From: an uncultured Mollicutes bacterium
GTDB lineage: Bacteria > Bacillota_I > Bacilli_A > ML615J-28 > CAG-313
Length of the DNA stretch: 64,000 bases
Direction: 5' to 3'
Assembly: GCA_900548675.1 (NCBI GenBank)
Contig: URLJ01000001.1
Coordinates: 9,012 to 73,011, forward strand
Of the stretch, positions 4,541 to 26,731 are shown in pieces. Below the pieces are notes generated by a model. The model was given only the letters and a program-made list of their open reading frames with translations, searched no databases and had not been told where the DNA came from. How positions within the stretch are numbered: the first letter of the stretch is position 1; every line of letters starts with the position of its first letter. Both the position numbers and the translations under genes were made by a program.

Positions 4541-5128
4541 AATTTCAACATTATAATCAATTTTAACTGTATTTGTTGGGACAACTAAAATTTGTCCTTT
4601 TTCTTTTGCATTTAATTCAATAATTTCGCCATATTCATGTCCCCATAACACATCTATCCAATTTGCTTTTCGTTGGCGTTTATCCATAATCTTTATTAAT
4701 TTTGGACTTTCTTCGTCCGTTTCTTTAATATAAATATTTTCACCTTGTATTGTCTGTAATTGTTTTCCATACTCAGTGTTAGCAAAAAATACATAATACA
4801 TTTCTTTCGTTGTTTCACTTGAGCCCGTTACAAAACCTGACCCCAATAGGAATGCGCCAGTTAAACTTGCATCTTCATATGTTTCAGTTTTAAATTCTAA
4901 ACCTGTAATTTCATATGCTGTTTCTTGAAATTCACTTTTAGTATCTTCACACGCATGATTTGCAATTGGCAATATAAGTAAGAATCCTGCTAACACTACG
5001 CATGCGCCCACAGCTATTTCCTCGTCCAACCAGTGAGCGATTAGTAAAGTAACAATGGTGACTACAATTATCATTATAATAAAATACAACATATTAAACC
5101 TCCTTATAAGTTTTATATAAACATTCAA
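4538..5128 (-). CDS. Hypothetical membrane protein
   Basis: N-terminal hydrophobic segments; the start may be the internal Met near 5092 to avoid overlap. Confidence 0.55.
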   Translation of the reverse strand: MNVYIKLIRRFNMLYFIIMIIVVTIVTLLIAHWLDEEIAVGACVVLAGFLLILPIANHACEDTKSEFQETAYEITGLEFKTETYEDASLTGAFLLGSGFVTGSSETTKEMYYVFFANTEYGKQLQTIQGENIYIKETDEESPKLIKIMDKRQRKANWIDVLWGHEYGEIIELNAKEKGQILVVPTNTVKIDYNVEI

Positions 5129-5783
5129 ATTTATTATTTAGAGGTATATCCAAATGCCAATGGCCAAAATACCATTTATCTATATTAACCATTTCATTTA
5201 TTGATTGAAGTCTACGTTGAGAATTGCTAATTTTAACTCCATTTATGTTTGAGAATACTGAAATTTGTGGAGTTATAGCAGCTGGACAATCATGTGATAG
5301 CATTATATCTATATGATTATTATCTCCTAAATTTCTTATAAAATGCCCTATATCAGTTGTAGTAATTTCTTCCTCTGGCCACCAACTAATTCCTTCTGTT
5401 CTATGCCATAAGTCTACCGAATTAGCTCCACCGCATACACCTATTCTTTTATTATTAATGTTATATACTTCACCTCTTAATAAGTGAATTACACCACTTG
5501 GTAATTTACCTGCGCGACCACCATTCCATTCAATAACCTCTTCTAATTCTCTAATTAAACGGAAATTTTCATGATTACCATCAACAAAAGCAACTGAAAA
5601 AGGTAAGTCTTCAATGATGCTAAAATTAAGTACAGTAGTTTTCTCATTCCAAATACAACCAAAATCACCTAAAACAATAACTAAATCATCTTTGGTAGCA
5701 TCTGGCAAATTGAAATTAAATAATCGTATTATATCACCGTGCAAATCACCTGTTATTATTATTCTATTTACTTTCTGTATCAT
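5094..5783 (-). CDS. Calcineurin-like metallophosphoesterase (Ser/Thr phosphatase family)
   Basis: Motifs GDLHG, GDFG, GNHE, and GHWH. Confidence 0.85.
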   Translation of the reverse strand: MIQKVNRIIITGDLHGDIIRLFNFNLPDATKDDLVIVLGDFGCIWNEKTTVLNFSIIEDLPFSVAFVDGNHENFRLIRELEEVIEWNGGRAGKLPSGVIHLLRGEVYNINNKRIGVCGGANSVDLWHRTEGISWWPEEEITTTDIGHFIRNLGDNNHIDIMLSHDCPAAITPQISVFSNINGVKISNSQRRLQSINEMVNIDKWYFGHWHLDIPLNNKFECLYKTYKEV

Positions 5784-9162: not shown

Positions 9163-9813
9163 CTAAACCTCCTTTATATAGTATTTTAATACTATTTTAT
9201 TATAATCTTCTATCCAATTCCAAACTTCTCTGCCATCTTCTGTTTTTAAATTGTCATAAAATCTATAACCATAGTAATCTCTACGTACTCTATCTGCTAC
9301 GTAATCAATTCCATACAATTTTAAATCTACAAGAATATAATCTATCATTGCACGAGTAACAAAATCCCAAATTGGATATTCTCCTGCACTTTCTCTGTTA
9401 TGTGCTTTATAATATTTATAAGGTTCGTCCCAGTTCCATTCAGAGCCTGCGCGTTTACCATAAACTTTTCCTGCACCAATCCAGTCAGCTATCATTTCAT
9501 ATACATATTGTCTTGGTATTCTGCAAGGTTTTGGATTTTGTTGGTTATCCCAATCCATCCAATACCATTGATGGTGTTTATTTTTTGCTTTGTGATGAAG
9601 CCATGCGGCTGAATAACCTTTTTCTTTCTTTTCTGCATCTATTGGTGAATAAGTACCTTGAAAATATCTTGCGCTTGGACCAAATTCAGTCCAAGAAAAT
9701 TTACTTAAATCGTGTACAATACCTTGCCAATATAAACCAAATTGAAAACAAACTTTTCCAACTTCTATTTTATGTTTAATTATTGTTTTTAAATGTTCAA
9801 AATATTTATTCAT
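9163..9813 (-). CDS. Hypothetical protein (Trp/Tyr-rich)
   Basis: ORF. Confidence 0.55.
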   Translation of the reverse strand: MNKYFEHLKTIIKHKIEVGKVCFQFGLYWQGIVHDLSKFSWTEFGPSARYFQGTYSPIDAEKKEKGYSAAWLHHKAKNKHHQWYWMDWDNQQNPKPCRIPRQYVYEMIADWIGAGKVYGKRAGSEWNWDEPYKYYKAHNRESAGEYPIWDFVTRAMIDYILVDLKLYGIDYVADRVRRDYYGYRFYDNLKTEDGREVWNWIEDYNKIVLKYYIKEV

Positions 9814-11080
9814 TAATTACCTCCTGTGCTTCTTCCATATCTGGCGCATCTGCGTTTTCTTTTATAATTCCTTCTAACACTTTAAAAGCAAATGATTTCT
9901 TTTTAAAAGCAGTAAAAACACTTTTATCTTCTAATCGAGCTACAACACCTTCGCTTACGTGAGTTTTTCCAATTGGGTCTTCTATATCTAACCATTTGTT
10001 TATTCTTTCATACATATCTTCTTGTGTTGTGAAAATAAATCTATCTAAATCCATTACTGTATTTAATCCCATTATTTCACATCTATGTTTTACAAGTGAC
10101 CAAGGATATTCAATGACTTCTCCATCCGGATTTGTCATTGTCATTCTGTAAACATACATTGCATTTTGTCCTTGCTCACAGCCATATGAGAAAGTAGTTT
10201 TAGCACCATATTTTTTAGTAAATTCTTTATCGTTCATTTTTTTATTATCAGCTATACCCATTATTGTTGTATTTTCGTTAGCCCAACCTACTATCTCGTA
10301 GTAAATTGTTTCACCTTTTAAAAGTCTTCCTTCTAATAAGCGATGATATTTTGCGCGAAAAGCATTGTCTCCATAAAATCCATCTTCGGCAAATTGAGTT
10401 AGCACAACTCTTCTAGTTCCTGTTACATATCTATAACGAGGAAATAATTTAAAAATAAATTGTTCAATTTTATTTTTACCAGCAGATGGCAAGTAAGCTG
10501 TTCTTCCAGAAGTTCCATGCATTTTTAAAGTTAAAGTAACTAAATCGCCAGGTTTAAATCTTTCAATATTGTAGTCAAGTTGTTCAGTATCTCTATGTTC
10601 TTCAAATAGTGGAAATTCATTTACTTTTCTTTTTTCTCTTTTAGTTTGCGCGCGAACCACGGATTTTTTACCTCTTGGTATATATTTTCTACAAATTTCT
10701 TGCCCGTCTAATACTGTAATTTGGTCTCCAAGTGATAAACTATTTACTACTTTTGTTCCAAGATAGTTTAAAGAACTTAATGGCATTACCAATCCATCTG
10801 AACGTTCGCCTCTTAGCTTAATTGCTTTTACATTTCTTTTATCTGGTTCTAAATAACCACCTATATTATTACCATTTTCATCTTTTTTCCTAACTAAATT
10901 ATTGGCTTCACAATATGACTCTGATAACTGTCCATCAGCTGGAAAATACAATACTATATCATCATCTTGTGAGTCTGCGCCAACAATTACTGTTGTATCA
11001 AATACATCTGCTAATACAAGTCTATCTGCATTAGGATGCTTTCTTACATTTTTTAATTTTGTTACATATCCACAATACAT
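9806..11080 (-). CDS. RNA ligase (Rnl2-like nucleotidyltransferase) fused to an N-terminal Trbp111/EMAP-II-like tRNA-binding OB domain
   Basis: N-terminus VRKHPNADRLVLADV...ERSDGLVMPLSSL is the tRNA-binding-domain signature. Motif I KMHGTSG (KxHG as in T4 Rnl2), motif III IYYEIVGW, motif IV EGVVARLED, motif V KKKSFAFKVLEG. Confidence 0.7.
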   Translation of the reverse strand: MYCGYVTKLKNVRKHPNADRLVLADVFDTTVIVGADSQDDDIVLYFPADGQLSESYCEANNLVRKKDENGNNIGGYLEPDKRNVKAIKLRGERSDGLVMPLSSLNYLGTKVVNSLSLGDQITVLDGQEICRKYIPRGKKSVVRAQTKREKRKVNEFPLFEEHRDTEQLDYNIERFKPGDLVTLTLKMHGTSGRTAYLPSAGKNKIEQFIFKLFPRYRYVTGTRRVVLTQFAEDGFYGDNAFRAKYHRLLEGRLLKGETIYYEIVGWANENTTIMGIADNKKMNDKEFTKKYGAKTTFSYGCEQGQNAMYVYRMTMTNPDGEVIEYPWSLVKHRCEIMGLNTVMDLDRFIFTTQEDMYERINKWLDIEDPIGKTHVSEGVVARLEDKSVFTAFKKKSFAFKVLEGIIKENADAPDMEEAQEVINE

Positions 11081-12858: not shown

Positions 12859-13002
12859 ATAAACAAAAAGAAACCCTCTGGTACAAACCAGAGGGTAATA
12901 TATGCTGGATTTTCTTTTATGTGAAAATCTAATATCCAGAGTTTTTTAGGCAGTTTGCTCCTATCTGCCACGGATTAGGCATATCTCTAACTCTAAACTT
13001 CG

Positions 13003-13075
13003 CCTAAGCCAGGACTCGAACCTGTATCTCTATATAAATAGCGCTCTAACCAATTAAGCTACATAAGCGAAGTGC
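13003..13075 (-). tRNA. tRNA-like gene, anticodon arm unresolved (possible degenerate tRNA)
   Basis: Minus-strand D-arm tagcttaattggttagagc and T-arm caggttcgagtcctgg; acceptor gcttatg/cttaggc extended by cttc/gaag; no clean anticodon stem found. Confidence 0.35.
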
Positions 13076-13143
13076 GTAAGTTTTGTTATCTTTGCTTACG
13101 CTAAGCGACTTTCACCGCATTTTTGGTTAGTGCAAATACAAAT

Positions 13144-13219
13144 TGGTCTTCGTGGTAAGAGTCGAACTTACAACCTCATGGTCCCAAACCACGCGGCTTA
13201 CCATCAAGCCTTCACGAAG
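13144..13219 (-). tRNA. tRNA-Pro(UGG)
   Basis: Acceptor cttcgtg/cacgaag, anticodon loop ttTGGga, T-arm gtaagttcgactcttac, CCA encoded. Confidence 0.8.
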
Positions 13220-13570
13220 ATAAAGGTTGGCAAACATTTTAATTATATTCAGGAGAGTTTGCCCAAACATAACTCCCTAAGTTTGGTAAGGTTTTTCTTA
13301 GCTGGAATATGAATGATAACCTTTAACATTCTTACCAGCATTGATAGCCCCAAACAGCTATCTTAGCCAAGGAGGTCTTCCCGAAGGATTACTCCCTAAG
13401 CTATGGTATAAGAAATAGCTTTAGCTGTCTCCGTTTGGTTTATCTAACAGCATATAGCCCAGGCTCACGGAATAAAACTATTTCATACTGGCAAAACAAC
13501 AGTAAGACTATGAATGCCTCTTTCACTCCTACTATTCTTACTTTATAGGCGGGCCATAGATTGTTGTTTC

Positions 13571-13646
13571 TGGTGGAACCCCAAGGAATCGAACCTTATC
13601 CTTCGGTTCTTCAGACCGACGCGCACACCAGTTACGCCAGAGTTCC
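13571..13646 (-). tRNA. tRNA-Phe(GAA)
   Basis: Acceptor ggaactc/gggttcc, anticodon loop ctGAAga, T-loop ttcgatt, CCA encoded. Confidence 0.8.
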
Positions 13647-13716
13647 ATAAACGGGGATGTCTGGAGCAGACAAATCATTAATCCCAGCTTTTCTTACAGC
13701 ACTCATAGTGCAGCCC

Positions 13717-14340
13717 CTAATCTAGATGATATCTTTGTTTCCAAGAAAGACTATTTTCTCTTGGAAAATTATAATGTTTCGCCACTAAATTGGTGAATTT
13801 TTCTGTTGGGTTTCGTTTTAAAACTTCTTGGAAAAAATAATAATCTTCTCCATGTTTCATATTTACATCATTTTTTAAACCCTTTATAAATTCAGTACGC
13901 ATTAATTTTACACTACCACAATAATTCACTTTAGTTTCTTGTGCTAAACGCCAGATAGTACCATCATTTATTCTTAAATCAAAATAAATTAAATCTTCCC
14001 CATTTGCATGCGCAATAACTTCTTCTATTGCTGATAAAAAATAATCGTCAGAACCTAATAAAACTATATATTCACCTTTAGCTTTTTCGTAACCAAGATT
14101 AACGGCATTAGAAACTCCTTGATTAATTTCTAAATTGCAATAATTAATTGCACAAATAAGATTATTATCATTAATGTATTCCAAAATTTTATTATGTGTA
14201 TTATCAGTTGAACCATCATTAACGATAATTACTTCTATGTCTTTTCTATTTGGAATGCTATACAATGCACGAAGAATTAAATTTTCTTGATTATATACTG
14301 GAACTATTACGGTTAATTTATAATTCATATGATACCTCAT
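13717..14340 (-). CDS. Glycosyltransferase family 2
   Basis: LTVIVPVYNQENLILRALYSI...IIVNDGSTDNT is the GT2 N-terminal signature. Confidence 0.8.
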   Translation of the reverse strand: MRYHMNYKLTVIVPVYNQENLILRALYSIPNRKDIEVIIVNDGSTDNTHNKILEYINDNNLICAINYCNLEINQGVSNAVNLGYEKAKGEYIVLLGSDDYFLSAIEEVIAHANGEDLIYFDLRINDGTIWRLAQETKVNYCGSVKLMRTEFIKGLKNDVNMKHGEDYYFFQEVLKRNPTEKFTNLVAKHYNFPRENSLSWKQRYHLD

Positions 14341-14600
14341 TTACCTTTATATATTCTATACCATTCATAGTAATCTGGCTCGCCTGGATAATTCCAAGCT
14401 TTATGAGAATGACAATATTCTTTCCAAGTTGAAGAAAAACTATAATCATAAATAAAATCCCAAGGCTCAACTAATTTGCGATAAGCCTTACCATTTGGTA
14501 TATCTTTTGTTTTTCTTACGACTTTATTACAATATCGTTTTCCCCATTTGCTACTATCTCTATCCTTACAAAAAGGATATTTTTTATAACTTCTACTCAT
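14337..14600 (-). CDS. Hypothetical protein
   Basis: ORF. Confidence 0.5.
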   Translation of the reverse strand: MSRSYKKYPFCKDRDSSKWGKRYCNKVVRKTKDIPNGKAYRKLVEPWDFIYDYSFSSTWKEYCHSHKAWNYPGEPDYYEWYRIYKGK

Positions 14601-14671
14601 AATTTACCTCCTATGAGGTTTTACCTCATTAGAAAGTAACTCTGTTCTTATTCATAAGACCAACTCCTTAT

Positions 14672-14923
14672 TTAATTAAATGGTATTAAATCAGAAGATA
14701 AAATAGTGCTATCAACTATTTTTAATGTACTGCACGTTGGGCATTGTACTTTTTTATTTAATCTTTTCGTATGCCACTGATTCATATATAAAGACGAATC
14801 AAAAGTAGTTTCTTCATCAATTTCTTCTATAATATCTTCTTTATCGTATTCAAAAATACAACCACATTTATAACAATTTAATCTATTACTTGGTTTAATA
14901 TATCCTTCTTTTATAACTTTCAT
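14672..14923 (-). CDS. Zinc-ribbon hypothetical protein
   Basis: CYKCGC ... CPTC cysteine pairs. Confidence 0.5.
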   Translation of the reverse strand: MKVIKEGYIKPSNRLNCYKCGCIFEYDKEDIIEEIDEETTFDSSLYMNQWHTKRLNKKVQCPTCSTLKIVDSTILSSDLIPFN

Positions 14924-15282
14924 ACAATTCCTTCTTTCTTATTAATTTGTTTTGGCTGGCGCGTTGCAGCGCCAGATAAGAGTTTATTACCACATACGGT
15001 CTAGTACTAACCTGCTATTGTCCCCGTTACGAGCGTAAGTTTTGGGTTGTTTATGGATTGCGGCAAGCCCTCTCGCCAGAGCCCTCTTATTCACCGCCTT
15101 TGAGTACTTTTACTTGCTATCTTACGACATTAGTATCCCATTACTAGATACCCGACTGATAGATACCATTTGGAGCTGACTTGGGTTTTTATCGGCGTCA
15201 ACAAGTCTGTAACCCCATAATCATAAAAAACAGTTTGGAAATAGCTTCAATCCACTTATTTTCTATTTAGCCGACAGTCTGC
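14924..15282 (-). other. GC-enriched ORF-free block of unknown function (candidate structured RNA)
   Basis: No ORF above 60 aa on either strand; local GC well above the window average; no tRNA resolvable. Confidence 0.3.
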
Positions 15283-15359
15283 TGGTAGCGACAGTTGGAC
15301 TCGAACCAACGACCTACTGGGTATGAACCAGTTGCACTAGCCAACTGTGCTATGTCGCT
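15283..15359 (-). tRNA. tRNA-Met(CAU) elongator-type (or Ile-lysidine type)
   Basis: Acceptor agcgaca/tgtcgct, anticodon loop ttCATac, T-arm gttggttcgagtccaac, CCA encoded. Confidence 0.8.
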
Positions 15360-15468
15360 ATATAGGTGGTGTTCGAGGATTTAAGTACTATTACCTCGTA
15401 TCGGCTCCCTCGCGCCGCACATTTGTTGGTCATTTATTATACGCGACAACTGTGAACTCTCGCGTAGC

Positions 15469-15543
15469 TGGCACCGGCGCTAAGACTCGAACTCAGACAA
15501 ACAGTTTTGGAGACTGTTGTGCTACCGATTACACTACACCGAT
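15469..15543 (-). tRNA. tRNA-Trp(CCA)
   Basis: Anticodon loop ctCCAaa, stem acagt/actgt, T-arm ctgagttcgagtcttag, CCA encoded; the acceptor has two G-U pairs. Confidence 0.7.
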
Positions 15544-15611
15544 ATAGACTACCAGGCTTAACTTATAATGCGCCAAACCTGTTTGCAACTTCCAATGCGC
15601 ATATAATTAAA

Positions 15612-15784
15612 CAGCTTTCTTCCAATTAAAACCGAAGGCGCGTTTGCCAGTATTAATAGAATTAACTATTAACATTTGAACTTTCCAGTCATCCATTTTT
15701 GTATCAATAGATGCAGAAGCCTCCTTAATTGAATTGAATTGTGCTATTTCTTTTTTATCTTTTACTTGTTTAATTTTTTCCATT
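15612..15784 (-). CDS. Small hypothetical protein (about 57 aa), not in the ORF track
   Basis: aaaggtggttatata-ATG gives MEKIKQVKDKKEIAQFNSIKEAS...; lies between tRNAs. Confidence 0.35.
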
Positions 15785-15808
15785 ATATAACCACCTTTCT
15801 AAATTGAT

Positions 15809-15884
15809 TGGAGCACGATGCGAGACTCGAACTCGCCCCATCTGCTTGGAAGGCAGGAATGCTAGCCACTGACACCAATCGTGC
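15809..15884 (-). tRNA. tRNA-Gly(UCC)
   Basis: Acceptor gcacgat/atcgtgc, anticodon loop ctTCCaa, T-arm gcgagttcgagtctcgc, CCA encoded. Confidence 0.75.
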
Positions 15885-15899
15885 AAATAAAGGTTAGTA

Positions 15900-16742
15900 C
15901 TTTTGATAAAGCAGACTGTACCAAACTGCTTTTGTAATAGCTATCGTTGAGAGCCTTTACCTTCCTGCATCTTCACTCAAAGGTGAGCCGCGTACACCAT
16001 CTCTCAATATTAAACAGGGTCTATTGTTCCACTATTACATCAATAATCTTACATATCTCAGTTTAGTTTGTACCTCGTTACTCTTTATGAATAAGTATTT
16101 TCATACTGGAAGATTACAGAATACTTCCAACTAACAGTTCAACTCTGTAAGATAATTCACCTATCTTCATCTGGGAATATTTACTGTTAGAGCCTAAGCC
16201 ACGACATTTTCAACCCAACTCCAACTCGTCTTGCAATTAGCAAGTTTGCCAGAGCGTCCGCTTAGCTTCACTTTCTCACGACTAAACTCATCTTGAAACC
16301 AGACCTCTAATATATTTCCACCGAATTTCACTTGGAGCCACTTCCAACTCCTTTGGTCTGTGCCTTACGCCGTTGATAGCGCATTCAGCCATAATGACTA
16401 TTGTTCTTGTACTTTTTTGAGCTACCCGATTTCCACCACGAGGAGGTAAGTACACTGGAAATCATATTTGGTTTGGTGGGGCGGCACTCCCACATCTCTT
16501 ATAAGCCCTAAATCTTACCTATAATGGATTTTAACCATTCCTCCACAGTTGCCCGGCTGTCACGGACTCGAACCGTTCGATATTAGGGTTGATAGCTGCC
16601 TTTCTATCCTCAAACCTGCAATAGGCCGTTGCTGGTTATAACTTTTTCGTATCGCCGACACTCTCTCGCTACAAGAGCCGCTTGCCTAAATTCACTATTA
16701 GGTCTGTTACAGACTGTTTCGCATTTCACCTATCGCTATGTA
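15900..16742 (-). other. About 840-bp GC-enriched ORF-free block; candidate structured ncRNA or degenerate tRNA region
   Basis: No ORF above 20 aa with an RBS on the minus strand; a T-loop-like ggttcgagtcc (reverse complement at 16565-16575) lacks a matching acceptor. Confidence 0.3.
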
Positions 16743-16955
16743 TTAAACAGAAAAATAACTAACTGAGCAATTAGGATATTCTGTTTTTAATTGATTAGTA
16801 CGTTCTTTTGCTATTGGCGCACTTTCTACATATTCACTATAAATTATTTTATAAGGAACATCAGAATTTATGCGTCCTCCTTCTGCTACTATTATTTTTT
16901 GTCTTATTTTCTTTTCTACTTTCTTTTCTACAACATTAGATTTTTTTACTGCCAT
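16743..16955 (-). CDS. Hypothetical protein
   Basis: ORF. Confidence 0.5.
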   Translation of the reverse strand: MAVKKSNVVEKKVEKKIRQKIIVAEGGRINSDVPYKIIYSEYVESAPIAKERTNQLKTEYPNCSVSYFSV

Positions 16956-16981
16956 ATTAAATACTTCCTTTCTTTTTATAT

Positions 16982-17326
16982 TTATTGTGGTATTTTCAAT
17001 TTTTTAATTACTTCAACTTTTGCTATAAATTTGCCAAGTTTAAAAGTTATTTTACCGTTATTTACTGTTAAAATTGTACCTTCTTTAAAGTTATTTATTA
17101 TATTTTGAATAATTTTATTTTTAAGACTATCGGTTGTAAGTAAATTATTGTCCTCTAACAAAGCTTTTGCTTCAGTAAATTTTATTTCATAAACTTTGTC
17201 ATTCACAGTAATTAAATTATAAATTCCATTACCTGTCATTGAGTATTTTCTTTGATAAGTATTAGGAAAATATTTTTTTAAAAACTCACCAAACTTATAA
17301 TCATATTCCCAAAAATATTCTATCAT
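16982..17326 (-). CDS. Hypothetical protein
   Basis: ORF. Confidence 0.55.
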   Translation of the reverse strand: MIEYFWEYDYKFGEFLKKYFPNTYQRKYSMTGNGIYNLITVNDKVYEIKFTEAKALLEDNNLLTTDSLKNKIIQNIINNFKEGTILTVNNGKITFKLGKFIAKVEVIKKLKIPQ

Positions 17327-17357
17327 TCAAATCACTTTCCTTTCTTTCTATAATATA

Positions 17358-17386
17358 ATTATACATTAATTTTTATAAAAAGTCAA
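17358..17386 (-). promoter_or_regulatory. Conserved early promoter cassette (minus)
   Basis: ttgact-17-tataat-tatattataga. Confidence 0.7.
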
Positions 17387-17389
17387 ATT

Positions 17390-17566
17390 TGCGAAACCTC
17401 ACATCACGCGGAGTGCCTTTCCTCTCAGCCACCGCCCAGTTTCCCAGGCAGGAAGGAGTCGAACCTTCGTCCGCAACTTGATAAAAGAAAGTATATACTT
17501 TTGCAACGTTTTAGAGTGTTGCTCCTCTGCGCTGGTATTATATATATTAAATATTATATAATCAAT
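17390..17566 (-). other. tRNA-like structured element downstream of the HNH gene; not resolvable as an intact tRNA
   Basis: T-arm gaaggttcgactccttc with a 3' acceptor-like ctgcctg but no complementary 5' strand; several hairpins (gcaac/gttgc, aaagtatatacttt). Confidence 0.3.
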
Positions 17567-18097
17567 TTAAATTAAAGCCCATTCTTCGTCTGTATACTGT
17601 TTTATTTCTGATTTTTTAGATGGTAATTTTTCTGAAATGCACCATTTTCTAATAGCATTATCACTAACTTCAAACATTTTTCCAATTAGTACAAAAGAAT
17701 TGTTTCTTATTAAATTTTTTAATTCTTCACGAGAAGGTCGATTTGCAACCTTTCTACGGTATAAACTACTACATTTAAAACATCTAATATTTTCAGAATT
17801 AATGATTGTCCCACAGTCGCAACATTTATTTGGCGGACTTATATAATAATCGTTTTCTTTTTCAAATTTTCCAGTTTGATGAAATCTAGTATGGTCTCCT
17901 TTTGTTTTAAAAACCATTAAATTAGAAGGATTATTATTGCTTCTATTTTCATCTATGTGATGAACTACTTCTTCCGAAGTTAAATTTCTACCAAGCATTT
18001 TTTCAGCAACTAAAATATGGTCATAAACACAACCAGAATTACCTATTGTTCTAGAATGATTAGGACACCAACTAGCATCATAGCCATTTATATTCAT
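17567..18097 (-). CDS. HNH homing endonuclease (HNH_3-type) embedded in the tRNA array
   Basis: EEVVHHIDENRSNNNPSNLMVF motif and C-terminal zinc-ribbon cysteines. Confidence 0.8.
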   Translation of the reverse strand: MNINGYDASWCPNHSRTIGNSGCVYDHILVAEKMLGRNLTSEEVVHHIDENRSNNNPSNLMVFKTKGDHTRFHQTGKFEKENDYYISPPNKCCDCGTIINSENIRCFKCSSLYRRKVANRPSREELKNLIRNNSFVLIGKMFEVSDNAIRKWCISEKLPSKKSEIKQYTDEEWALI

Positions 18098-18113
18098 TTT
18101 AATACCTCTTTTA

Positions 18114-18187
18114 TGGTGAGGATACCAAGAATCGGACTTGAGTCTATTGATTAAAAGTCAATTGCTTTACCACTAAGCTATATCCCC
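18114..18187 (-). tRNA. tRNA-Lys(UUU)
   Basis: Acceptor ggggata/tatcctc, D-arm tagcttagtggtaaagc, anticodon loop ctTTTaa; non-canonical T-loop tccgatt; CCA encoded. Confidence 0.75.
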
Positions 18188-18193
18188 ATTTAT

Positions 18194-18270
18194 TGGTGGA
18201 GAATGACGGACTCGAACCGTCCACCTTCTCGGTGCAAGCGAGATGTTCTAGCCAGATGAACTAATTCCCC
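18194..18270 (-). tRNA. tRNA-Ala(UGC)
   Basis: Acceptor ggggaat/attctcc, anticodon loop ctTGCac, T-arm gacggttcgagtccgtc, CCA encoded. Confidence 0.8.
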
Positions 18271-18394
18271 ATAGGCCCTCGTTTGTTTTGTTATCGCGTC
18301 TCTGCCAGTCAAACGAGCAAATATCTCACGCCTATTAAATTATAGGTAATTCTCAATTTATTATTCTATTTAACGCTCCTGAGAAAAGAGCACT

Positions 18395-18469
18395 TGGCGC
18401 CTCGACCGAGAATTGAACTCGGGTCTCCTGCGTGACAGGCAGGTGTCATGACCACTAAACTACCGAGAC
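18395..18469 (-). tRNA. tRNA-Asp(GUC)
   Basis: Anticodon stem cctgc/gcagg, loop ctGTCac, T-arm ccgagttcaattctcgg, CCA encoded. Confidence 0.75.
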
Positions 18470-18571
18470 ATTAATACAGTTTTGATGTAGACTGTAAACT
18501 ACCTCTATGTCCTTTAGATGTCGCATAGAGTGACCTCGAGATTGGAAAGACCTCTCTCATATAATGTTCCC

Positions 18572-18659
18572 TGGCGCGTACTCAAGGATTCGAACCTTGG
18601 AGCCGTTTCCGACTTCCAGTTTTCAAGACTGGCGCCTTCAGCCACTCGGCCAAGTACGC
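18572..18659 (-). tRNA. tRNA-Ser(UGA) with long variable arm
   Basis: Perfect acceptor gcgtact/agtacgc, anticodon loop ctTGAaa, long variable arm, T-arm caaggttcgaatccttg, CCA encoded. Confidence 0.8.
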
Positions 18660-18665
18660 ATATGT

Positions 18666-18740
18666 TGGTAGCCCGTACCAGAGTCGAACTGGTGACTCCA
18701 CCGTGAAAGGGTGGTGGCTTGACCACTTGCCCAACGGGCC
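18666..18740 (-). tRNA. tRNA-Glu(UUC)
   Basis: Acceptor ggcccgt/acgggct, anticodon stem ccacc/ggtgg, loop ctTTCac, T-arm accagttcgactctggt, CCA encoded. Confidence 0.75.
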
Positions 18741-18876
18741 ATATAAACTCTCACAGCCAGCTCTTTATATTCTATGTAAACATGACGACGAATTCTATTG
18801 AGCATCTTTAAGAGTTACCTCGCCGATTGTACCCACTGTGATAGGGAGGCTATAACTTATCGCTATTAACACTTAG

Positions 18877-18908
18877 CTTGGTGCGAACATACCAAGTACC
18901 TCTTTTTT
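18877..18908 (+). terminator. Plus-strand rho-independent terminator-like hairpin at the edge of the minus-strand tRNA cluster
   Basis: cttggt-gcgaacat-accaag followed by tacctcttttttta. Confidence 0.35.
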
Positions 18909-18920
18909 TAATCTATAATA

Positions 18921-18950
18921 ATTATACTATAATTTTAAATAAAAATCAAA
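18921..18950 (-). promoter_or_regulatory. Conserved early promoter cassette (minus; TTGATT variant)
   Basis: ttgatttttatttaaaattatag-tataat-tattatag. Confidence 0.6.
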
Positions 18951-19326
18951 TTTTTATTCCTTTATTTTCCAAATTTAATAAACATTCTGCTAAATAATCA
19001 TCATTATGCTCTTTATAAATCATTAATCCTCGTTGTGAAATATCTTTACCTAAAACAATAAATCTATTAACTTCTTCTTCGTTATATCGTTTGGATAATT
19101 GAGTACGCATCATTTTGGGATTTGGATTATATCCTCTTTGTCTCATTTCATTAAAAATTAAAATAGAATATGCCACTAAAAAACTTTCTGAATGATTAAA
19201 AACATAATTAACTACTGCGTGTTTTCTACCCCAGCCATTTCCTAATAAAGCTGCGCATTCTCTCCACTGTCCACATAATTGTTGTTGTGGTAATTTATGA
19301 ATTAAATTTTGATGCCATAATCTCAT
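18946..19326 (-). CDS. Hypothetical protein (MRLWHQ N-terminus; conserved Firmicute/phage family, function unknown)
   Basis: ORF. Confidence 0.5.
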   Translation of the reverse strand: MRLWHQNLIHKLPQQQLCGQWRECAALLGNGWGRKHAVVNYVFNHSESFLVAYSILIFNEMRQRGYNPNPKMMRTQLSKRYNEEEVNRFIVLGKDISQRGLMIYKEHNDDYLAECLLNLENKGIKI

Positions 19327-19356
19327 ATCACATCATTCCTTTCTAACTATAATATA

Positions 19357-19385
19357 ATTATACCATAGTTTGGAAAGAAAATCAA
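19357..19385 (-). promoter_or_regulatory. Conserved early promoter cassette (minus)
   Basis: ttgattttctttccaaactatgg-tataat-tatattatag. Confidence 0.6.
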
Positions 19386-19786
19386 ATTTCTTGAATTAAT
19401 TTTGCAACTTTTATTAATTTTTCATAATCTAATTGTTCTAATACTTTATAATCTTCTGCACTAGTTACTAATTTTAATTGGTCTAATAATGCTTTTTTAT
19501 GTGCGTTTCTAATTATTAATTGCAATTGAGCATGCGCTTTTATTGCTTCTTCTTTTTCTTTTTCAATTTGTTTGTTAGTTTTAACAATACATTCAACATT
19601 TTTTAACATAGTTTCATCATATCTAATATCTACGATATCAACTTGACTAACTCTTGCTAGCGCGAAGCCACTATTAGTATTAACAACTACAATATCGCCT
19701 ATTTCTACTCCGTCAAAATTATTATAAGTATATTCATTTCCGCTATAACTATCTTGGTAATTATTTTTAAATTGAACTTTTATCAT
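19382..19786 (-). CDS. Hypothetical protein
   Basis: ORF. Confidence 0.55.
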   Translation of the reverse strand: MIKVQFKNNYQDSYSGNEYTYNNFDGVEIGDIVVVNTNSGFALARVSQVDIVDIRYDETMLKNVECIVKTNKQIEKEKEEAIKAHAQLQLIIRNAHKKALLDQLKLVTSAEDYKVLEQLDYEKLIKVAKLIQEI

Positions 19787-19788
19787 AT

Positions 19789-20115
19789 TTATTCTCCTTT
19801 CTTTAATAATTTTTCAAAAATATGCGCGTTTTCTTCAATTAAATTACAAATATTATCTAACTGCTTTAAATAACCTTTTCCAATATTGCTTCTTAACAAT
19901 TCTGCACAAATTTCGGCGCAAATTTGTTCTTGAGAGTTTTTAAAATCAGCTGAATAAACTCTATGATAACTTACCGCGATTGGTATTTCACTTTCAAATA
20001 CGAATATAAGAATTTCGTTTTCACCAAAGACCAATTTAATATATCTATCATAATCGTCCTCCATTACATTATAATATATGTAATTAATCAAATCTTCTAA
20101 ATGGTCTACTTTCAT
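19789..20115 (-). CDS. Hypothetical protein
   Basis: ORF. Confidence 0.55.
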   Translation of the reverse strand: MKVDHLEDLINYIYYNVMEDDYDRYIKLVFGENEILIFVFESEIPIAVSYHRVYSADFKNSQEQICAEICAELLRSNIGKGYLKQLDNICNLIEENAHIFEKLLKKGE

Positions 20116-20117
20116 TC

Positions 20118-20429
20118 TTATTCCTCCCAGAATTCAATATTATCTATATGTTCTTTACACACCTTTGATATTTTTTGCACAAAATAAATAAAATTTGGAT
20201 TATATTCTACAACAATTAAACAAGGTTTAAAATCATCAAAGGTAGTTTGTAATACTCTACCTCCAAATTTTAAATTCCATTCTGCTAAAAAATCTATAAT
20301 GGTTCCATCACTTATACAAATATAATTTTCACTCCAATAATTATCATATTTTCTTCGTTTATTAAAAGAAACATATTGTTTCTTCATTGCTGGGTTTTTA
20401 ACTTTCTCTTTTATTCTCATATTTATCAA
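20118..20429 (-). CDS. Hypothetical protein
   Basis: ORF. Confidence 0.55.
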   Translation of the reverse strand: MINMRIKEKVKNPAMKKQYVSFNKRRKYDNYWSENYICISDGTIIDFLAEWNLKFGGRVLQTTFDDFKPCLIVVEYNPNFIYFVQKISKVCKEHIDNIEFWEE

Positions 20430-20441
20430 CTCTCTTTCTTA

Positions 20442-20519
20442 TGGTAGACGCAGAGAGACTCGAACTCCCGACCCACGCTTTAGAAGAGCGTTGCTCTAAT
20501 CCATCTGAGCTATGCGTCT
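20442..20519 (-). tRNA. tRNA-Arg(UCU)
   Basis: Perfect acceptor agacgca/tgcgtct, D-arm tagctcagatggattagagc, anticodon loop ctTCTaa, T-arm gggagttcgagtctctc, CCA encoded. Confidence 0.8.
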
Positions 20520-20639
20520 ATAAGTGGCAGCTACTCGGCGAAACTGCCTGCGGAATATTGTTAACACTTTTTATGTTAGAATTGGCTCCTAGAGCATATA
20601 TCCTACATTCCTTTTACCAACTTTGCAACCGAGTTCTTT

Positions 20640-20716
20640 TGGTACTCGATGATGGAATCGAACCATCGACCTCTGCGTTATCAGCACAGCGCTCTAACCG
20701 ACTGAGCTAATCGAGT
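20640..20716 (-). tRNA. tRNA-Ile(GAU)
   Basis: Perfect acceptor actcgat/atcgagt, D-arm tagctcagtcggttagagc, anticodon loop ctGATaa, T-arm gatggttcgattccatc, CCA encoded. Confidence 0.8.
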
Positions 20717-20719
20717 ATA

Positions 20720-20905
20720 TTATTGTTCAAAATCACCTTCGTAAAAAATTAAGCCTATTAACATTCCCAAAATTGAAGAAACTAATAATCCTCCTAAAAA
20801 ACTTGCTTGAAATGCCATCCAAGACATACTGATTGTACCTCCTGCAACACCTATAATTATTAAATAAAACCCAAGTTTTTTAAAAAATACCCTTGTCTTA
20901 CTCAT
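20720..20905 (-). CDS. Small membrane protein
   Basis: Two hydrophobic helices. Confidence 0.5.
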   Translation of the reverse strand: MSKTRVFFKKLGFYLIIIGVAGGTISMSWMAFQASFLGGLLVSSILGMLIGLIFYEGDFEQ

Positions 20906-20925
20906 TTCTTTCCTCCTATAATATA

Positions 20926-20954
20926 ATTATATAACAATTTTTATGTAAAATCAA
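20926..20954 (-). promoter_or_regulatory. Conserved early promoter cassette (minus)
   Basis: ttgattttacataaaaattgtta-tataat-tatattatagg. Confidence 0.6.
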
Positions 20955-21011
20955 CTTTATAAAAGGAATGCGCGAAAAGTAAGAAAATTATGCTTTCCGC
21001 GCCGTAGTCTA

Positions 21012-21218
21012 TTAATTTGTTAAATCTTTTACTGTGTTTTTTGTTGTGTCTATTGGATGTTCTACTGTTTGTTCAATTCCTCGCACGAAGCCTTTGTCAT
21101 CTTTTTTTACTATTTCGTAATTATTAACTAAGGTATAAGTTACACCTACTGTTAACATTATAGCTAGTATAATAAGAAGCCAATGCCACCAGTGCCAATG
21201 AAAATCTCTGTGTTCCAT
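21012..21218 (-). CDS. Small membrane protein (His/Trp-rich N-terminus)
   Basis: ORF with one transmembrane segment. Confidence 0.5.
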   Translation of the reverse strand: MEHRDFHWHWWHWLLIILAIMLTVGVTYTLVNNYEIVKKDDKGFVRGIEQTVEHPIDTTKNTVKDLTN

Positions 21219-21271
21219 AGCAAAACTCCTTTTATATATATTAAATCAAAAGAGGTTGCCCTCAATTGATT

Positions 21272-22789
21272 TTATAATCTAACAACATCATATATTGAAT
21301 CATTTAGTGTTTTTAACATTGTGTTATATGGGTCTTCATCCACCGCCATTAATACGCTTCTAAAAGCTGAAACAGATTGCCCACTTACCATTGCAATATT
21401 TTTTTGTTCGCATACTCCGTGATATACATCTTGTCTACTATCTACGTTCCAATATATTATTTTTGGAATAATATATCCGTGACGTTGAAATCTCATTGCA
21501 ATTTCATCCATTAGTTTGTTTTGTCTTGCAATTTCAGTATTTCCATACATTGATGAATAACGTGTTCCAGTTGCTCCATCAAATTCCATATCTGAAATTA
21601 TTACAATCGCTTTAGGCATATCTTCTTGTGTTAATTTGTTGTTAATAGCAGTTTGTAACACTAAATTAAACGCAGCTTCTATATTAGTATTGTCGACAAT
21701 TGCTGGAATGCTTCTAACTTTTTCAGCTAAATTTAAACCTTTTAACTCTACAAAATTTGGTTTTGATGAGAAAGTCATAAAATTATTATGCCAAGGTCCA
21801 TTATTTCTTTCAGCAAAGTAAATTGCTAATCCTATTGAAGTACAAATTGGTCTTCCACTCATTGAGCCAGAAGTGTCTGCCATTACTAATATATTGTTGT
21901 TTCCTTCAATATAATTTGGTAATGCTTTCCATTGTTCTTCAAGTACTTCATCCCATTTGTTAAAACTAAAATTACTGCTTCTCCAATTTTCTGACAATCC
22001 TGCGGCTTCCATTATATCATAAGGATATAATGTTTTTGCATTAATTTTTTCTTCTCCTGATTTTACTTTTTCAATGTACTCTTTAAATTTGATTAAATTA
22101 TGCTCTCCAAAAGCATTTCTATATTTTTTCATTGCCAATGAAGGTACTTCATTGTACACAATTTTATCCCATTCATTTTTGCTCATATTTCTTTCAACTA
22201 TATTAAGTTGTTTTCTTAATTTTGATAAAATTTGTCTATATTCTTTATATGAATAATGTAATTTTTTTGCAGTTAATTTACCTAATTTAGCGCTTTCGAT
22301 TGACACACCAGATGTTGACTTTAACCATTTTGCTAATAAACTAATTTGTTTACCTGCCTCAAGCGCAGCTAAATCAGCTTCCAATTGATTTTTTATAACA
22401 TCAAATGCTAAATCTTCCAATGGTGTTTTTACAAATTCATATAAATCATCCCATCTACCAAAAATAGGCACTAAATTAATATTTTTTGCCATAACTTCTT
22501 GATGATAGTTTGCTAAATATTTTATTAAAATACGAAATGTTCTTCTTTCTCCAAGTCCACCTCTAATATTTCTTGCATAAAATAACATTTTCATAGCTAA
22601 TAGTTGGTCTTCGGCAAAAGCTTTAATAAATTTCGTTTCAATTTCTTGTGAAGGTCTTGTTCTTAACGCACCAATTACTGCGAATAAATCTAATAAATCT
22701 GAATTTGTTGTTCTATATGCTATCGCTCCATTTTCTGTTAATGTTTCGTTTGTTTCATTTTTAATACTTTTTATAAAATTTTCACTCAT
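21272..22789 (-). CDS. von Willebrand factor A (vWA) domain protein with a long helical N-terminal region; possibly Ro60/TROVE-like
   Basis: MIDAS motif ILVMADTSGSMSG around residue 305, followed by IVIISDMEFDG; the N-terminal 300 aa are unassigned. Confidence 0.6.
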   Translation of the reverse strand: MSENFIKSIKNETNETLTENGAIAYRTTNSDLLDLFAVIGALRTRPSQEIETKFIKAFAEDQLLAMKMLFYARNIRGGLGERRTFRILIKYLANYHQEVMAKNINLVPIFGRWDDLYEFVKTPLEDLAFDVIKNQLEADLAALEAGKQISLLAKWLKSTSGVSIESAKLGKLTAKKLHYSYKEYRQILSKLRKQLNIVERNMSKNEWDKIVYNEVPSLAMKKYRNAFGEHNLIKFKEYIEKVKSGEEKINAKTLYPYDIMEAAGLSENWRSSNFSFNKWDEVLEEQWKALPNYIEGNNNILVMADTSGSMSGRPICTSIGLAIYFAERNNGPWHNNFMTFSSKPNFVELKGLNLAEKVRSIPAIVDNTNIEAAFNLVLQTAINNKLTQEDMPKAIVIISDMEFDGATGTRYSSMYGNTEIARQNKLMDEIAMRFQRHGYIIPKIIYWNVDSRQDVYHGVCEQKNIAMVSGQSVSAFRSVLMAVDEDPYNTMLKTLNDSIYDVVRL

Positions 22790-23379
22790 TTTAAACCTCC
22801 ATTTTCCTAAATAAAGACAAGGCGCTTATAACATTTCCTTTTGAGCAGGAAATTTAGGATTTGAACCTAAATAAACCAATAACGAATTTGCTGGATGCGC
22901 CTTTAAAACTAGGGACTGATATCATTTTTCGGACTACACGTCTGACTTAATATACAATAAATTGCTGGCTGTCCCTACAATATAATATTTTTAATTTAAC
23001 TCGTGTTTGAAAGATGTTCTTGGCATATTACTGGGGTCGCCTCAATCTTTCCTCCCACGACATTGTAAGCTTTTCGCATGGAGCGAAATACTTTCTAATT
23101 TGATGTTTTATCAAATTCCAAAATTACAAAAAATTGTAATACTGCTTTTACGCATTTGCTGTATGACCCCTTAGATTACTAAAAGTATGTGTAATTGTGT
23201 TCGATATTAACTTTGACACTTTGCTGGGCTCGTCTCTGTTAATATCTTGCACCTAATATGTTCTGGAGCTTACTCCTCGTAAGCATTGTTGGACAAACCA
23301 ACCTAATTTGTATCTAAAATACAAACTGTCTTTTTCAAGACGATTGCTGTGTGAGCCCTTATTTATTTTCTATAATATA
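22790..23379 (-). other. About 590-nt non-coding leader with a tRNA-like T-arm and mini-helix immediately upstream of the vWA gene (candidate Y-RNA-like or other ncRNA)
   Basis: Minus RNA uuuagguucaaauccuaaa (T-arm-like; reverse complement at 22852-22870), then uuuccugcucaaaaggaaa hairpin, then the RBS ggagg; no ORF above 30 aa. Confidence 0.3.
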
Positions 23380-23408
23380 ATTATAGCAGAAATTTTATTT
23401 AAAATCAA
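23380..23408 (-). promoter_or_regulatory. Conserved early promoter cassette (minus)
   Basis: ttgattttaaataaaatttctgc-tataat-tatattatag. Confidence 0.6.
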
Positions 23409-23518
23409 CTATTTAATTATAGATTTCCACTGTATAACCATAATGTTCTAATAATTGTTTCATATTAAAAACTCCTACTGGATTTGCGCTATGAATATAG
23501 ATTTTATTGCATTTAATA

Positions 23519-23728
23519 TTATTCTCCACTATTAGTTTTGCAATATCGTAACCAGTTTTTTCTTCGCCGTAAATCGTGGTCTAAATCTACAATATCAAAT
23601 CTATAAACTAATAAATTTTTAAGTGCTTGTTCATAATTACGAGCAATAGTTACTTTATTTATTTCTTCTTTCCAAATTTTTGGAAATCTTACATCATCAA
23701 CATATAGAATATTTTTCATAATTATCAC
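23519..23728 (-). CDS. Receiver (CheY-like) domain-like protein, N-terminal part; appears truncated by a frameshift at an A-run, with continuation in another frame down to about 23413
   Basis: N-terminus MKNILYVDD...FDIVDLDHDL; the adjacent frame encodes ...GYDIAKLIVENNIKCNKIYIHSANPVGVFNMKQLLEHYGYTVEIYN and ends at 23413-23415. Confidence 0.4.
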   Translation of the reverse strand: MIIMKNILYVDDVRFPKIWKEEINKVTIARNYEQALKNLLVYRFDIVDLDHDLRRRKNWLRYCKTNSGE

Positions 23729-23749
23729 TCACTTTCTTAATTTATAATA

Positions 23750-23779
23750 ATTATATTACAATTTTAACTTAAAATCAAA
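23750..23779 (-). promoter_or_regulatory. Conserved early promoter cassette (minus)
   Basis: ttgattttaagttaaaattgtaa-tataat-tattataaatt. Confidence 0.6.
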
Positions 23780-23786
23780 TTTTTAA

Positions 23787-23862
23787 TGGAGTCCTGTATT
23801 GGAATTGAACCAATGATAACGGTTTTGCAGACCGTCGCCTTAACCAACTTGGCTAACAGGAC
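23787..23862 (-). tRNA. tRNA-Cys(GCA)
   Basis: Perfect acceptor gtcctgt/acaggac, anticodon loop ctGCAaa, T-arm attggttcaattccaat, CCA encoded. Confidence 0.8.
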
Positions 23863-23865
23863 AAA

Positions 23866-23940
23866 TGGTGCGTCTACTAGGAGTCGAACCTAGAGCTCAG
23901 GGTTCGTAGCCCTGCATTTTATCCATTAAACTATAAACGC
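23866..23940 (-). tRNA. tRNA-Arg(ACG)
   Basis: Acceptor gcgttta/tagacgc, anticodon stem caggg/ccctg, loop ctACGaa, T-arm ctaggttcgactcctag, CCA encoded. Confidence 0.75.
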
Positions 23941-23943
23941 ATA

Positions 23944-24017
23944 TGGGGTAGACTGACGGTTACGCTCCGTCGTCTGGAGTGCCACAAACTCCCGTTCTAC
24001 TATTGAACTAAGCCTAC
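23944..24017 (-). tRNA. tRNA-His(GUG), with an atypical T-loop
   Basis: Acceptor gtaggct/agtctac, discriminator C, D-arm tagttcaatagtagaac, anticodon loop ttGTGgc; T-stem gacgg/ccgtc with unusual loop agcgtaa; CCA encoded. Confidence 0.55.
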
Positions 24018-24054
24018 ACCCAAACTCACTTTATAAGTGAGCAAAGGTCTAAAC

Positions 24055-25640: not shown

Positions 25641-25935
25641 ATTTTTCTTTCCTCCATAGCTCCCAAAAATCTGATTTAATTATAAAATCATTCATTTCTT
25701 CAAAAATTTTATGCATAAAGAAATCAGATTCTCCTCTTATCCATTCTCTAATTATTCTATTTCTATTAGGTTCTAATTCATCTATTAATTCATAAAGATA
25801 ATAACTTACACCATCTAATTGCGCTTTTTGGTATTGTCGTACCCAAAATCTATTCTCAAATACGTCTTCCTTTAATGACTTATTAAATTCTCTTACTTTT
25901 TTATTTACTTTTTTATCTGTTTTTGTTTTACTCAC
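25630..25935 (-). CDS. Hypothetical protein
   Basis: ORF. Confidence 0.5.
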   Translation of the reverse strand: MSKTKTDKKVNKKVREFNKSLKEDVFENRFWVRQYQKAQLDGVSYYLYELIDELEPNRNRIIREWIRGESDFFMHKIFEEMNDFIIKSDFWELWRKEKYGL

Positions 25936-26364: not shown

Positions 26365-26378
26365 ATTAATTACTCCTT

Positions 26379-26469: not shown

Positions 26470-26471
26470 AT

Positions 26472-26705: not shown

Positions 26706-26731
26706 CTTCTTTCTTAATTTATTCTATAATA

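Follow-up and report, generated by a model that had tools for sequence, protein, structure and literature searches.

The T4 pair of Pnkp and Rnl1 directed against PrrC, Pnkp-Hen1, HD-Pnk and the RlaP cassettes all follow the same logic, in which a 5′-kinase and a 2′,3′-phosphoesterase heal the ends of a broken RNA and an ATP-dependent ligase seals it. In large tRNA-rich phages, the joint occurrence of ATP-dependent RNA ligases, polynucleotide kinases, phosphoesterases (HAD, calcineurin or HD) and RlaP is regarded as an RNA-repair strategy (PMC7824862), and in the Bacillus phages closest to the locus described here a ligase, a polynucleotide kinase and a nucleotidyltransferase have been read as a T4-like counter to anticodon nucleases (anti-PrrC) (PMC9703825). 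Our analysis concerns an RNA ligase gene (9806..11080) on a 64,000-nucleotide stretch of contig URLJ01000001.1 (assembly GCA_900548675.1, filed under an uncultured Mollicutes bacterium), to which we refer as the window. The best overall explanation is that the gene product is an Rnl5-family enzyme that probably seals the breaks in a phage pathway of RNA repair.

The Rnl5 family was described between 2004 and 2015, and crystal structures are known. Its members are defined by an N-terminal OB module and a C-terminal nucleotidyltransferase domain with no C-terminal appendage, the exemplars being Deinococcus DraRnl and Naegleria NgrRnl (PMC1807946, PMC4408790, PMC7261155), and homologs in Aeromonas, Caulobacter, Mycobacterium and Sinorhizobium phages were listed already in 2007-2015 (PMC1807946, PMC4408790). 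The exemplars perform Mn-dependent sealing of 3′-OH/5′-PO4 nicks and need an RNA 3′-OH strand. The physiological role of Rnl5 is still called uncharted (PMC5397189).

The nearest described relatives of the window ligase are those of Bacillus siphoviruses (Kirov, vB_BcoS-136, PBC2 and Thrax1/3), which are 47-50% identical over full length and show the same architecture (PHROG 968, PF21189 plus PF09414). In these phages the ligase is paired with a nucleotidyltransferase and with a homolog of a kinase-HD protein that is also encoded in the window. Ligase and kinase genes are adjacent in the Bacillus phages, whereas in the window ~27 kb and a change of strand separate them, the ligase gene is followed by a DUF5662 gene, and the kinase gene is frameshifted. 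The nucleotidyltransferase of Kirov is a different, shorter protein and was not recovered by phmmer with the one from the window. The window set also differs from that of T4, in that the ligase is Rnl5 and not Rnl1 and the phosphatase is of the HD and/or calcineurin type and not of the T4 DxDxT type.

Family assignment of the ligase

The open reading frame (ORF) 9806..11080 represents a real gene, since its product matches PHROG 968 "RNA ligase" over full length (E=1.9e-69) and at least 7,988 homologs were retrieved at E<=1e-5 from a collection of 5.8 billion proteins, the nearest with 88% identity. At E<=1e-3 the homologs form 2,365 clusters at 50% identity. A homolog was detected in 373 records of the phage collection, and nearly all of those listed carry the annotation "RNA ligase".

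The gene product is an Rnl5 ligase of a longer subfamily (~420-430 aa) with many members in phages that infect Firmicutes and Actinobacteria. An OB domain upstream of the nucleotidyltransferase domain was recovered by PF21189, by the predicted structure, by the NgrRnl profile match and by Foldseek, and no other ligase family came as near to the window protein as the Rnl5 exemplars. The PF21189 ("PHA02142 OB-fold domain") match is weak in the window copy (aa 6-101) and above cutoff in homologs; most ligase homologs carry this domain, and PF09414 RNA_ligase is also found on many. The single match in NCBIfam was TIGR02306 RNA_lig_DRB0094, the DraRnl family (E=1.7e-14). When a profile of 45 homologs was searched against all PDB sequences, NgrRnl (Naegleria gruberi, 5COT) was retrieved at E=8e-10 from the OB domain through the motif I lysine, the runners-up being PheRS beta, in its OB region (E~0.02), and T4 Rnl2 (E=0.23); profiles were needed for this, as phmmer with the single ligase sequence gave nothing relevant in PDB. 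NgrRnl was also the only significant match to a solved structure that extended over both domains (Foldseek at full length, and profile).

A first reading of the window (hereafter the original prediction) had placed the ORF and all of its listed motifs correctly, and had called the enzyme Rnl2-type. An Rnl2 identity (T4 Rnl2, REL1) was rejected. T4 Rnl2 and the kinetoplastid RNA-editing ligases have an N-terminal nucleotidyltransferase and an all-helical C-terminal domain, with no N-terminal OB. The arrangement found here is the reverse, with the nucleotidyltransferase in C-terminal position behind the OB domain and only 29 residues after motif V, and because it has no C-terminal domain the ligase is not of the Rnl2 type. 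Rnl2 was also weaker by score, both in the profile search given above and in Foldseek, where it stood eight orders of magnitude below NgrRnl.

Translation of the ORF places VRKHPNADRLVLADV at aa 12-26, ERSDGLVMP at aa 92-100, KMHGTSG at aa 186-192, IYYEIVGW at aa 259-266, EGVVARLED at aa 377-385 and KKK at aa 393-395. Conservation was counted in an alignment of 45 diverse ligase homologs. The nucleotidyltransferase domain contains motif I (K186-M-H-G), R223, motif III (E262), motif IIIa (Y311), motif IV (E377-G) and motif V (K393/K395); all 45 homologs have K186, R223, E262, Y311, E377, K393 and K395, and 43/45 have H188. The ligase residues T184-x-K186-x-H188-G189 correspond to the essential DraRnl residues T163, K165, H167 and G168 (PMC1807946), and in profile alignments K186 coincides with the nucleophile K170 of NgrRnl. 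With its catalytic residues invariant and a DraRnl-like motif I, the ligase therefore looks catalytically competent by its motifs.

Residues of NgrRnl were mapped through hidden Markov model alignments (the PDB chain index equals residue number + 1). The two proteins share the domain order, motifs III, IV and V, and the OB lysine (K121 in NgrRnl, K132 in the window). They differ in that identity is only ~15% and that the window ligase is ~85 aa longer (424 vs ~340), with extra residues across linker and nucleotidyltransferase domain: 76 vs 57 aa separate motifs I and III, 115 vs 85 aa motifs III and IV, and the tail measures 29 vs ~13 aa. The predicted structure gave a confident OB model for aa 1-133. 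Confidence falls below 50 (predicted local distance difference test, pLDDT) in the basic linker, aa 136-170, which opens with RGKKSVVRAQTKREKRKV and in which H162 (43/45), D164 (35/45) and Q167 (37/45) are conserved. The window ligase further ends in a conserved acidic tail that is absent in the shorter NgrRnl; its residues E403, D414, E416 and E417 are kept in 41-42 of the 45 homologs, and it could serve as a tip for protein interactions.

In many ligase homologs, 590-810 aa long (P0127, P0139, P0126, P0144), inteins are inserted at or just after motif I (KxHGTS), at a site that corresponds to about aa 185-205 of the window protein. Both mini-inteins and full inteins with a LAGLIDADG endonuclease occur. 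In the window copy there is no intein.

Candidate healing partners around the ligase in related phages

The candidate partners encoded in the window (table 1) were compared with the surroundings of ligase homologs elsewhere. Six-frame ORFs from 92 loci around ligase homologs were searched with the window proteins, and the loci were collapsed to 50 non-redundant lineages at >=90% ligase identity; a scan of viral contigs with a narrow alignment gave 9 loci only and was repeated with a 45-sequence alignment. A kinase homolog was located within 10 kb of the ligase in 37 of the 50 lineages and within 3 kb in 32 of them, always on the same strand, and was a full-length kinase-HD protein in 26 of the lineages with a nearby kinase homolog. 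By a rough estimate, a kinase within 3 kb would be expected in ~6% of cases in a 100-kb genome, as against 64% observed. At least one kinase or metallophosphoesterase homolog occurred within 10 kb in 43/50 lineages.

Three gene orders recurred: ligase, (nucleotidyltransferase), kinase-HD; the phosphoesterase homologous to 5094-5783, the one homologous to 27650-28213, ligase; and ligase followed by a kinase-only ORF abutting a phosphoesterase of the 27650-28213 type, which resembles a split Pnkp. Ligase, RlaP-like nucleotidyltransferase and kinase-HD are contiguous in four loci. A gene annotated "polynucleotide kinase" comes directly after the "RNA ligase" in the Bacillus phages Kirov and vB_BcoS-136, and the Kirov kinase is 30% identical to the window kinase-HD over its full length (E=5e-35). 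In a mycobacteriophage, a polynucleotide kinase is encoded 3.5 kb upstream of the ligase homolog. No annotated kinase was found near the distant homolog of a Vibrio phage, so the linkage is not universal. The functional grouping made by the original prediction, an RNA-repair toolkit, is nevertheless well supported by this neighbourhood evidence: its partners are credible and their homologs cluster with the ligase in most related phages, the reservations being that in the window itself the set is dispersed and the kinase is broken.

The window kinase-HD protein has the kinase domain first and the HD domain second, the opposite of the order in Runella HD-Pnk. The original prediction had recognised this gene one nucleotide further upstream (37717-38662), and the gene carries a one-nucleotide insertion in the Walker A codons; the two calcineurin-like phosphoesterases were found as it had described them, with Metallophos matches. 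Homologs of the phosphoesterase at 5094-5783 lie within 10 kb of the ligase in 15 of the 50 lineages, commonly 0.5-2.7 kb upstream. Those of 27650-28213 stand directly upstream of the ligase in one group of loci (the L061 group) and directly after a kinase-only ORF in six others.

A further candidate partner is the nucleotidyltransferase at 39114-40028, which appears by its sequence to be a divergent RlaP subfamily. The protein itself has no direct match in Pfam, but PF10127 RlaP is matched by 11 of 16 homologs (28-38% identity; best E=4.4e-7). The G-S...D-x-D motif of the Pol-beta family is invariant in these proteins and reads G-S...D-I-D in the window copy. A profile of the family found no solved structure by sequence. 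Of the loci, 37 contain a homolog, usually placed between the genes for ligase and kinase-HD. Enzymes of the RlaP type extend damaged RNA 3′ ends by one or two nucleotides (PMC12776372).

We infer the enzyme steps from the Rnl5 family and the pathway role of the window phage from the conserved gene neighbourhood of its relatives. In the proposed pathway, the P-loop kinase fused to HD would convert 5′-OH to 5′-phosphate and remove 2′,3′-cyclic or 3′-phosphate, the calcineurin-type phosphoesterases would also supply healing, and the RlaP-type enzyme could restore a lost 3′ nucleotide. Motif I lysine K186 would then attack ATP to form ligase-AMP, with the OB domain closing over the active site and K132 and D49 orienting the pyrophosphate leaving group. 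AMP would be passed to the 5′-phosphate RNA end, and attack by the RNA 3′-OH strand in a duplex or stem would seal the break. Most plausibly, the damage reversed by the pathway would be cuts in tRNA, or in other structured RNAs of translation, that are made by ribonuclease defences of the host.

Several observations weigh against this reading. The TIGR02306 score of the ligase is 53.5 bits vs an equivalog cutoff of 151.15 and covers only aa 8-199, so the ligase represents a divergent subfamily and is no equivalog by the NCBI criterion. NgrRnl R149 aligns with Q167 and NgrRnl R4 has no counterpart, hence some ATP contacts differ from those of NgrRnl, and the model of the nucleotidyltransferase domain is only moderate (mean pLDDT 69). 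The partners are located 4-28 kb from the window ligase, some on the opposite strand, and the kinase P-loop is frameshifted, so that the full repair pathway may not be functional in this particular genome. Finally, the sole genetic phenotype of an Rnl5 enzyme, that of DraRnl, is in DNA repair after irradiation (PMC5397189).

This phenotype would fit a role in phage DNA replication or repair, in which the ligase would seal nicks with RNA on the 3′-OH side (ribonucleotide patches, primer remnants), as in DraRnl genome reassembly. Rnl5 enzymes do accept DNA on the 5′-phosphate and template strands, and loss of DraRnl delays genome reassembly, for which ligase activity is required (PMC5397189). 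The gene is situated in the replication/nucleotide-metabolism arm and near a DNA ligase in Thrax, Kirov and BcoS-136 (PMC9703825), and in the window it is the kinase-HD gene that adjoins genes for RNase H, a dNMP-kinase-like protein, DNA ligase and gyrase. However, the phage encodes its own ATP-dependent DNA ligase and an RNase H, which argues that the Rnl5 enzyme is not the DNA ligase of this phage. Furthermore, the conserved partners are of kinds that heal RNase-type ends, characterised RlaP members act only on RNA (PMC12776372), and these partners are linked to the ligase far more closely than any replication gene is. We therefore regard a DNA role as improbable and retain the sealing of RNA as our explanation.

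The state of the kinase gene bears on whether the pathway still operates. The one-nucleotide insertion lies at about 37750 and leads to a premature TAA (37762-37764) after 15 codons. An intact ortholog of 314 aa with 99% identity, present on 12 contigs, reads GGA TTA CCA GGC AGC GGT AAA (GLPGSGK) where the window reads GGT TTA CCT C GGC AGT GGT AAA. An HNH endonuclease gene (37246-37713), which is inserted between RNase H and kinase in the window, is absent from the 99%-identical relatives; the lesion is ~30 nt downstream of it, and over its initial ~45 nt the kinase gene shows a cluster of substitutions, after which the sequences are identical. The lesion looks like the footprint of a homing-endonuclease invasion and may be a real inactivation. 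Alternatively, it could be an error of assembly.

If real, it could mean that the repair pathway is decaying in this genome and that the ligase, deprived of a working kinase, persists as a remnant with little or no current function. Besides the insertion, this would fit the arrangement of the cassette, which is contiguous in relatives and here split over ~28 kb and two strands (phosphoesterases at 5.1 and 27.6 kb, ligase at 9.8 kb, kinase-HD and nucleotidyltransferase at 37.7-40.0 kb on the other strand). Against it, the ligase has an unbroken ORF and retains every catalytic residue, its orthologs at 78-91% identity have unbroken ORFs too, and the HD domain, both phosphoesterases and the RlaP-like enzyme are intact as well. 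The frameshift could stem from assembly, and host kinases or a nuclease that produces 5′-phosphates could bypass the kinase. A non-functional remnant thus seems very unlikely to us, and a working sealing enzyme is the reading we keep.

Kinase-HD genes that are truncated, or split into two ORFs after ~60-73 codons, were also observed downstream of ligase homologs in three of the loci. They represent a recurrent disruption, or recurrent sequencing problems, across related phage or prophage contigs.

The OB domain and tRNA

The N-terminal ~135 aa are modelled as an OB fold of the Trbp111/CsaA/EMAP-II/MetRS-C/PheRS-B2 type. This agrees with the fold named by the original prediction; in Pfam, PF01588 tRNA_bind stayed under its curated threshold (15.3 vs 27 bits, aa 83-103 only). 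The resemblance has a precedent in DraRnl, the N module of which was already called a putative homolog of the PheRS B2 OB fold (PMC1807946). Compared with the tRNA_bind OB domains of PF01588 (Trbp111, CsaA, EMAP-II/p43, Arc1p, the MetRS C-terminus and PheRS beta B2), the domain in Rnl5 precedes the ligase and aids adenylylation.

From this fold the original prediction had concluded that the ligase is physically targeted to tRNA. In that case the OB domain would be a true tRNA-binding module directing the enzyme to broken tRNAs and making it tRNA-specific, in the manner of T4 Rnl1 with its tRNA-specifying C domain. The fold alone is no proof of tRNA binding, as CsaA and PheRS B2 share it and have other roles, and what is known of the family assigns the domain to catalysis. 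Deletion of the Rnl5 N module abolishes adenylylation and overall nick sealing and leaves step 3 intact (PMC4408790, PMC7261155). In the Michaelis complex of NgrRnl, the OB residues R4, D53 and K121 engage the gamma-phosphate of ATP as well as a metal and orient the pyrophosphate leaving group (PMC4408790, PMC7261155); the ATP contacts in OB and nucleotidyltransferase domains are functionally redundant (PMC7261155). In step 3 the N domain is dispensable or even inhibitory, and the specificity for an RNA 3′-OH sits in the nucleotidyltransferase domain (PMC4408790, PMC7261155, PMC1807946).

The ATP-contacting K121 corresponds to K132 of the window ligase, which is invariant (45/45), and D53 to D49 (39/45). 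Characterised Rnl5 substrates are nicked duplexes with an RNA 3′-OH strand (PMC7261155, PMC4408790) and not specifically tRNA, and tRNA binding is reported for no Rnl5 N domain in three papers on the family (PMC1807946, PMC4408790, PMC7261155). As the role of the OB domain in the family is catalytic and K132 and D49 map to ATP contacts, targeting to tRNA is a possibility to which the evidence does not point, and we consider a tRNA-directing module unlikely.

Genomic surroundings and significance

Table 1. Features of the window and of the ligase that are discussed in the text
Feature	Position	Strand	Remarks
Two further tRNAs	998-1151	+	ARAGORN/Rfam
Calcineurin-like metallophosphoesterase	5094..5783	-	PHROG 1649 (E=4.5e-32); Pfam Metallophos E=1.6e-7; possible 2′,3′-phosphoesterase partner
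DUF5662 gene	9163..9813	-	Overlaps the ligase gene by 8 nt and is translationally coupled to it; AGGAGG lies 7 nt upstream of the DUF5662 ATG
Rnl5-family ATP-dependent RNA ligase gene	9806..11080	-	424 aa; ATG start; stop codon 9806-9808
Ligase: short acidic C-terminal tail, aa 403-424	9809..9874	-	No C-terminal domain; pLDDT <50, predicted disordered
Ligase: nucleotidyltransferase (adenylyltransferase) domain, aa 171-402	9875..10570	-	PF09414 RNA_ligase in homologs
Ligase: basic linker, aa 136-170	10571..10675	-	Low confidence; ends in conserved EHxDTxQL segment
Ligase: N-terminal OB domain, aa 1-135	10676..11080	-	Rnl5 signature N domain, tRNA_bind-like fold; KLRGERSDG aa 88-96; invariant K132
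tRNA gene block	13001..27189	-	Rfam: 17 tRNAs on the minus strand; tmRNA at 26853-27189
Calcineurin-like metallophosphoesterase	27650..28213	-	PHROG 547 (E=8.5e-52); Pfam Metallophos and Metallophos_2 E~1e-7; possible 2′,3′-phosphoesterase partner
Replication-block genes around kinase-HD and nucleotidyltransferase	36743-37237, 39946-40497, 40553-41671, 42160-44013	+	
Polynucleotide-kinase-like P-loop (AAA_33) + HD phosphohydrolase	37718..38662	+	Candidate end-healing partner; Pfam AAA_33 E=9e-20, HD E=2.4e-5; AAA_33+HD at 37739-38662
RlaP-like Pol-beta-family nucleotidyltransferase	39114..40028	+	304 aa; candidate 3′-end restoring partner; PHROG 388 nucleotidyltransferase E=5e-11
Separate ATP-dependent DNA ligase	40553-41671	+	Motif I KKDGQ

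The start codon of the DUF5662 gene is embedded in AATGAATAA, and its product is possibly a divergent HD-fold hydrolase. The linkage between DUF5662 and ligase is specific to the lineage of the window. Directly upstream of the ligase gene, a 177-aa protein without family match (11094-11627) and a group-1 glycosyltransferase (11569-12624) are encoded on the minus strand, and the order glycosyltransferase, small ORF, ligase, DUF5662 is kept in the lineage at 78% identity (L003-L006). Scans for promoters and terminators near the ligase performed no better than on shuffled sequence, and repeats in 8400-12800 were chance matches of AT-rich DNA. The kinase-HD and nucleotidyltransferase pair is located within a replication block that comprises RNase H, a dNMP-kinase-like protein, an ATP-dependent DNA ligase and gyrase B, and the phage thus has no need of the Rnl5 enzyme for sealing DNA nicks.

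The window is rich in tRNAs, as originally noted, with 18 detected by ARAGORN and 19 by Rfam in addition to the tmRNA. The difference is a tRNA-like gene at 13001-13068 (-) with 42.5 bits in Rfam that is missing from the ARAGORN output. A "skipping-rope" sRNA motif (RF02924; 45.7 bits vs a gathering score of 36.7) was found inside the tRNA block at 16468-16618 (-).

The DNA is AT-rich (~29-30% GC), and a GyrB search found no close cultured phage relative, identity being 35% at most. The contigs bearing the nearest ligase genes (78-91% identity) have been binned with sheep-colon Bacilli and with uncultured Clostridium metagenome-assembled genomes, and the window therefore is probably part of a large phage of animal-gut Firmicutes.

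The original prediction had described the module as new, yet it is published for the closest Bacillus phages and for large phages, as cited above. Architecture, family, OB-fold resemblance and anti-ribonuclease interpretation are all in the literature, and GenBank phage records routinely say "RNA ligase". Judging from two papers that cite Burroughs & Aravind 2016 (PMC7824862, PMC12776372), even the exact Rnl5-RlaP-PnkHD cassette seems to have been described previously. What is specific to the window is modest: the long subfamily, the acidic tail, the sub-cutoff match to TIGR02306 and the gene order of the lineage with its DUF5662 coupling.

For the family, the linkage of the ligase to kinase-HD, RlaP and phosphoesterase genes, with the kinase within 3 kb in 32 of 50 lineages, argues that Rnl5 seals in an RNA heal-and-seal pathway, at least in phages. 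It also yields a defined set of proteins to reconstitute, which is useful but incremental. A more far-reaching idea, to which we give little weight, is that in the long phage subfamily the OB domain and the basic linker aid adenylylation and also bind tRNA, which would make the cassette of ligase, RlaP and Pnk-HD a tRNA-dedicated counter to anticodon nucleases. If this is true, a physiological substrate would for the first time be assigned to an Rnl5 ligase, and there would be an explanation for the tRNA-binding fold of the Rnl5 signature domain.

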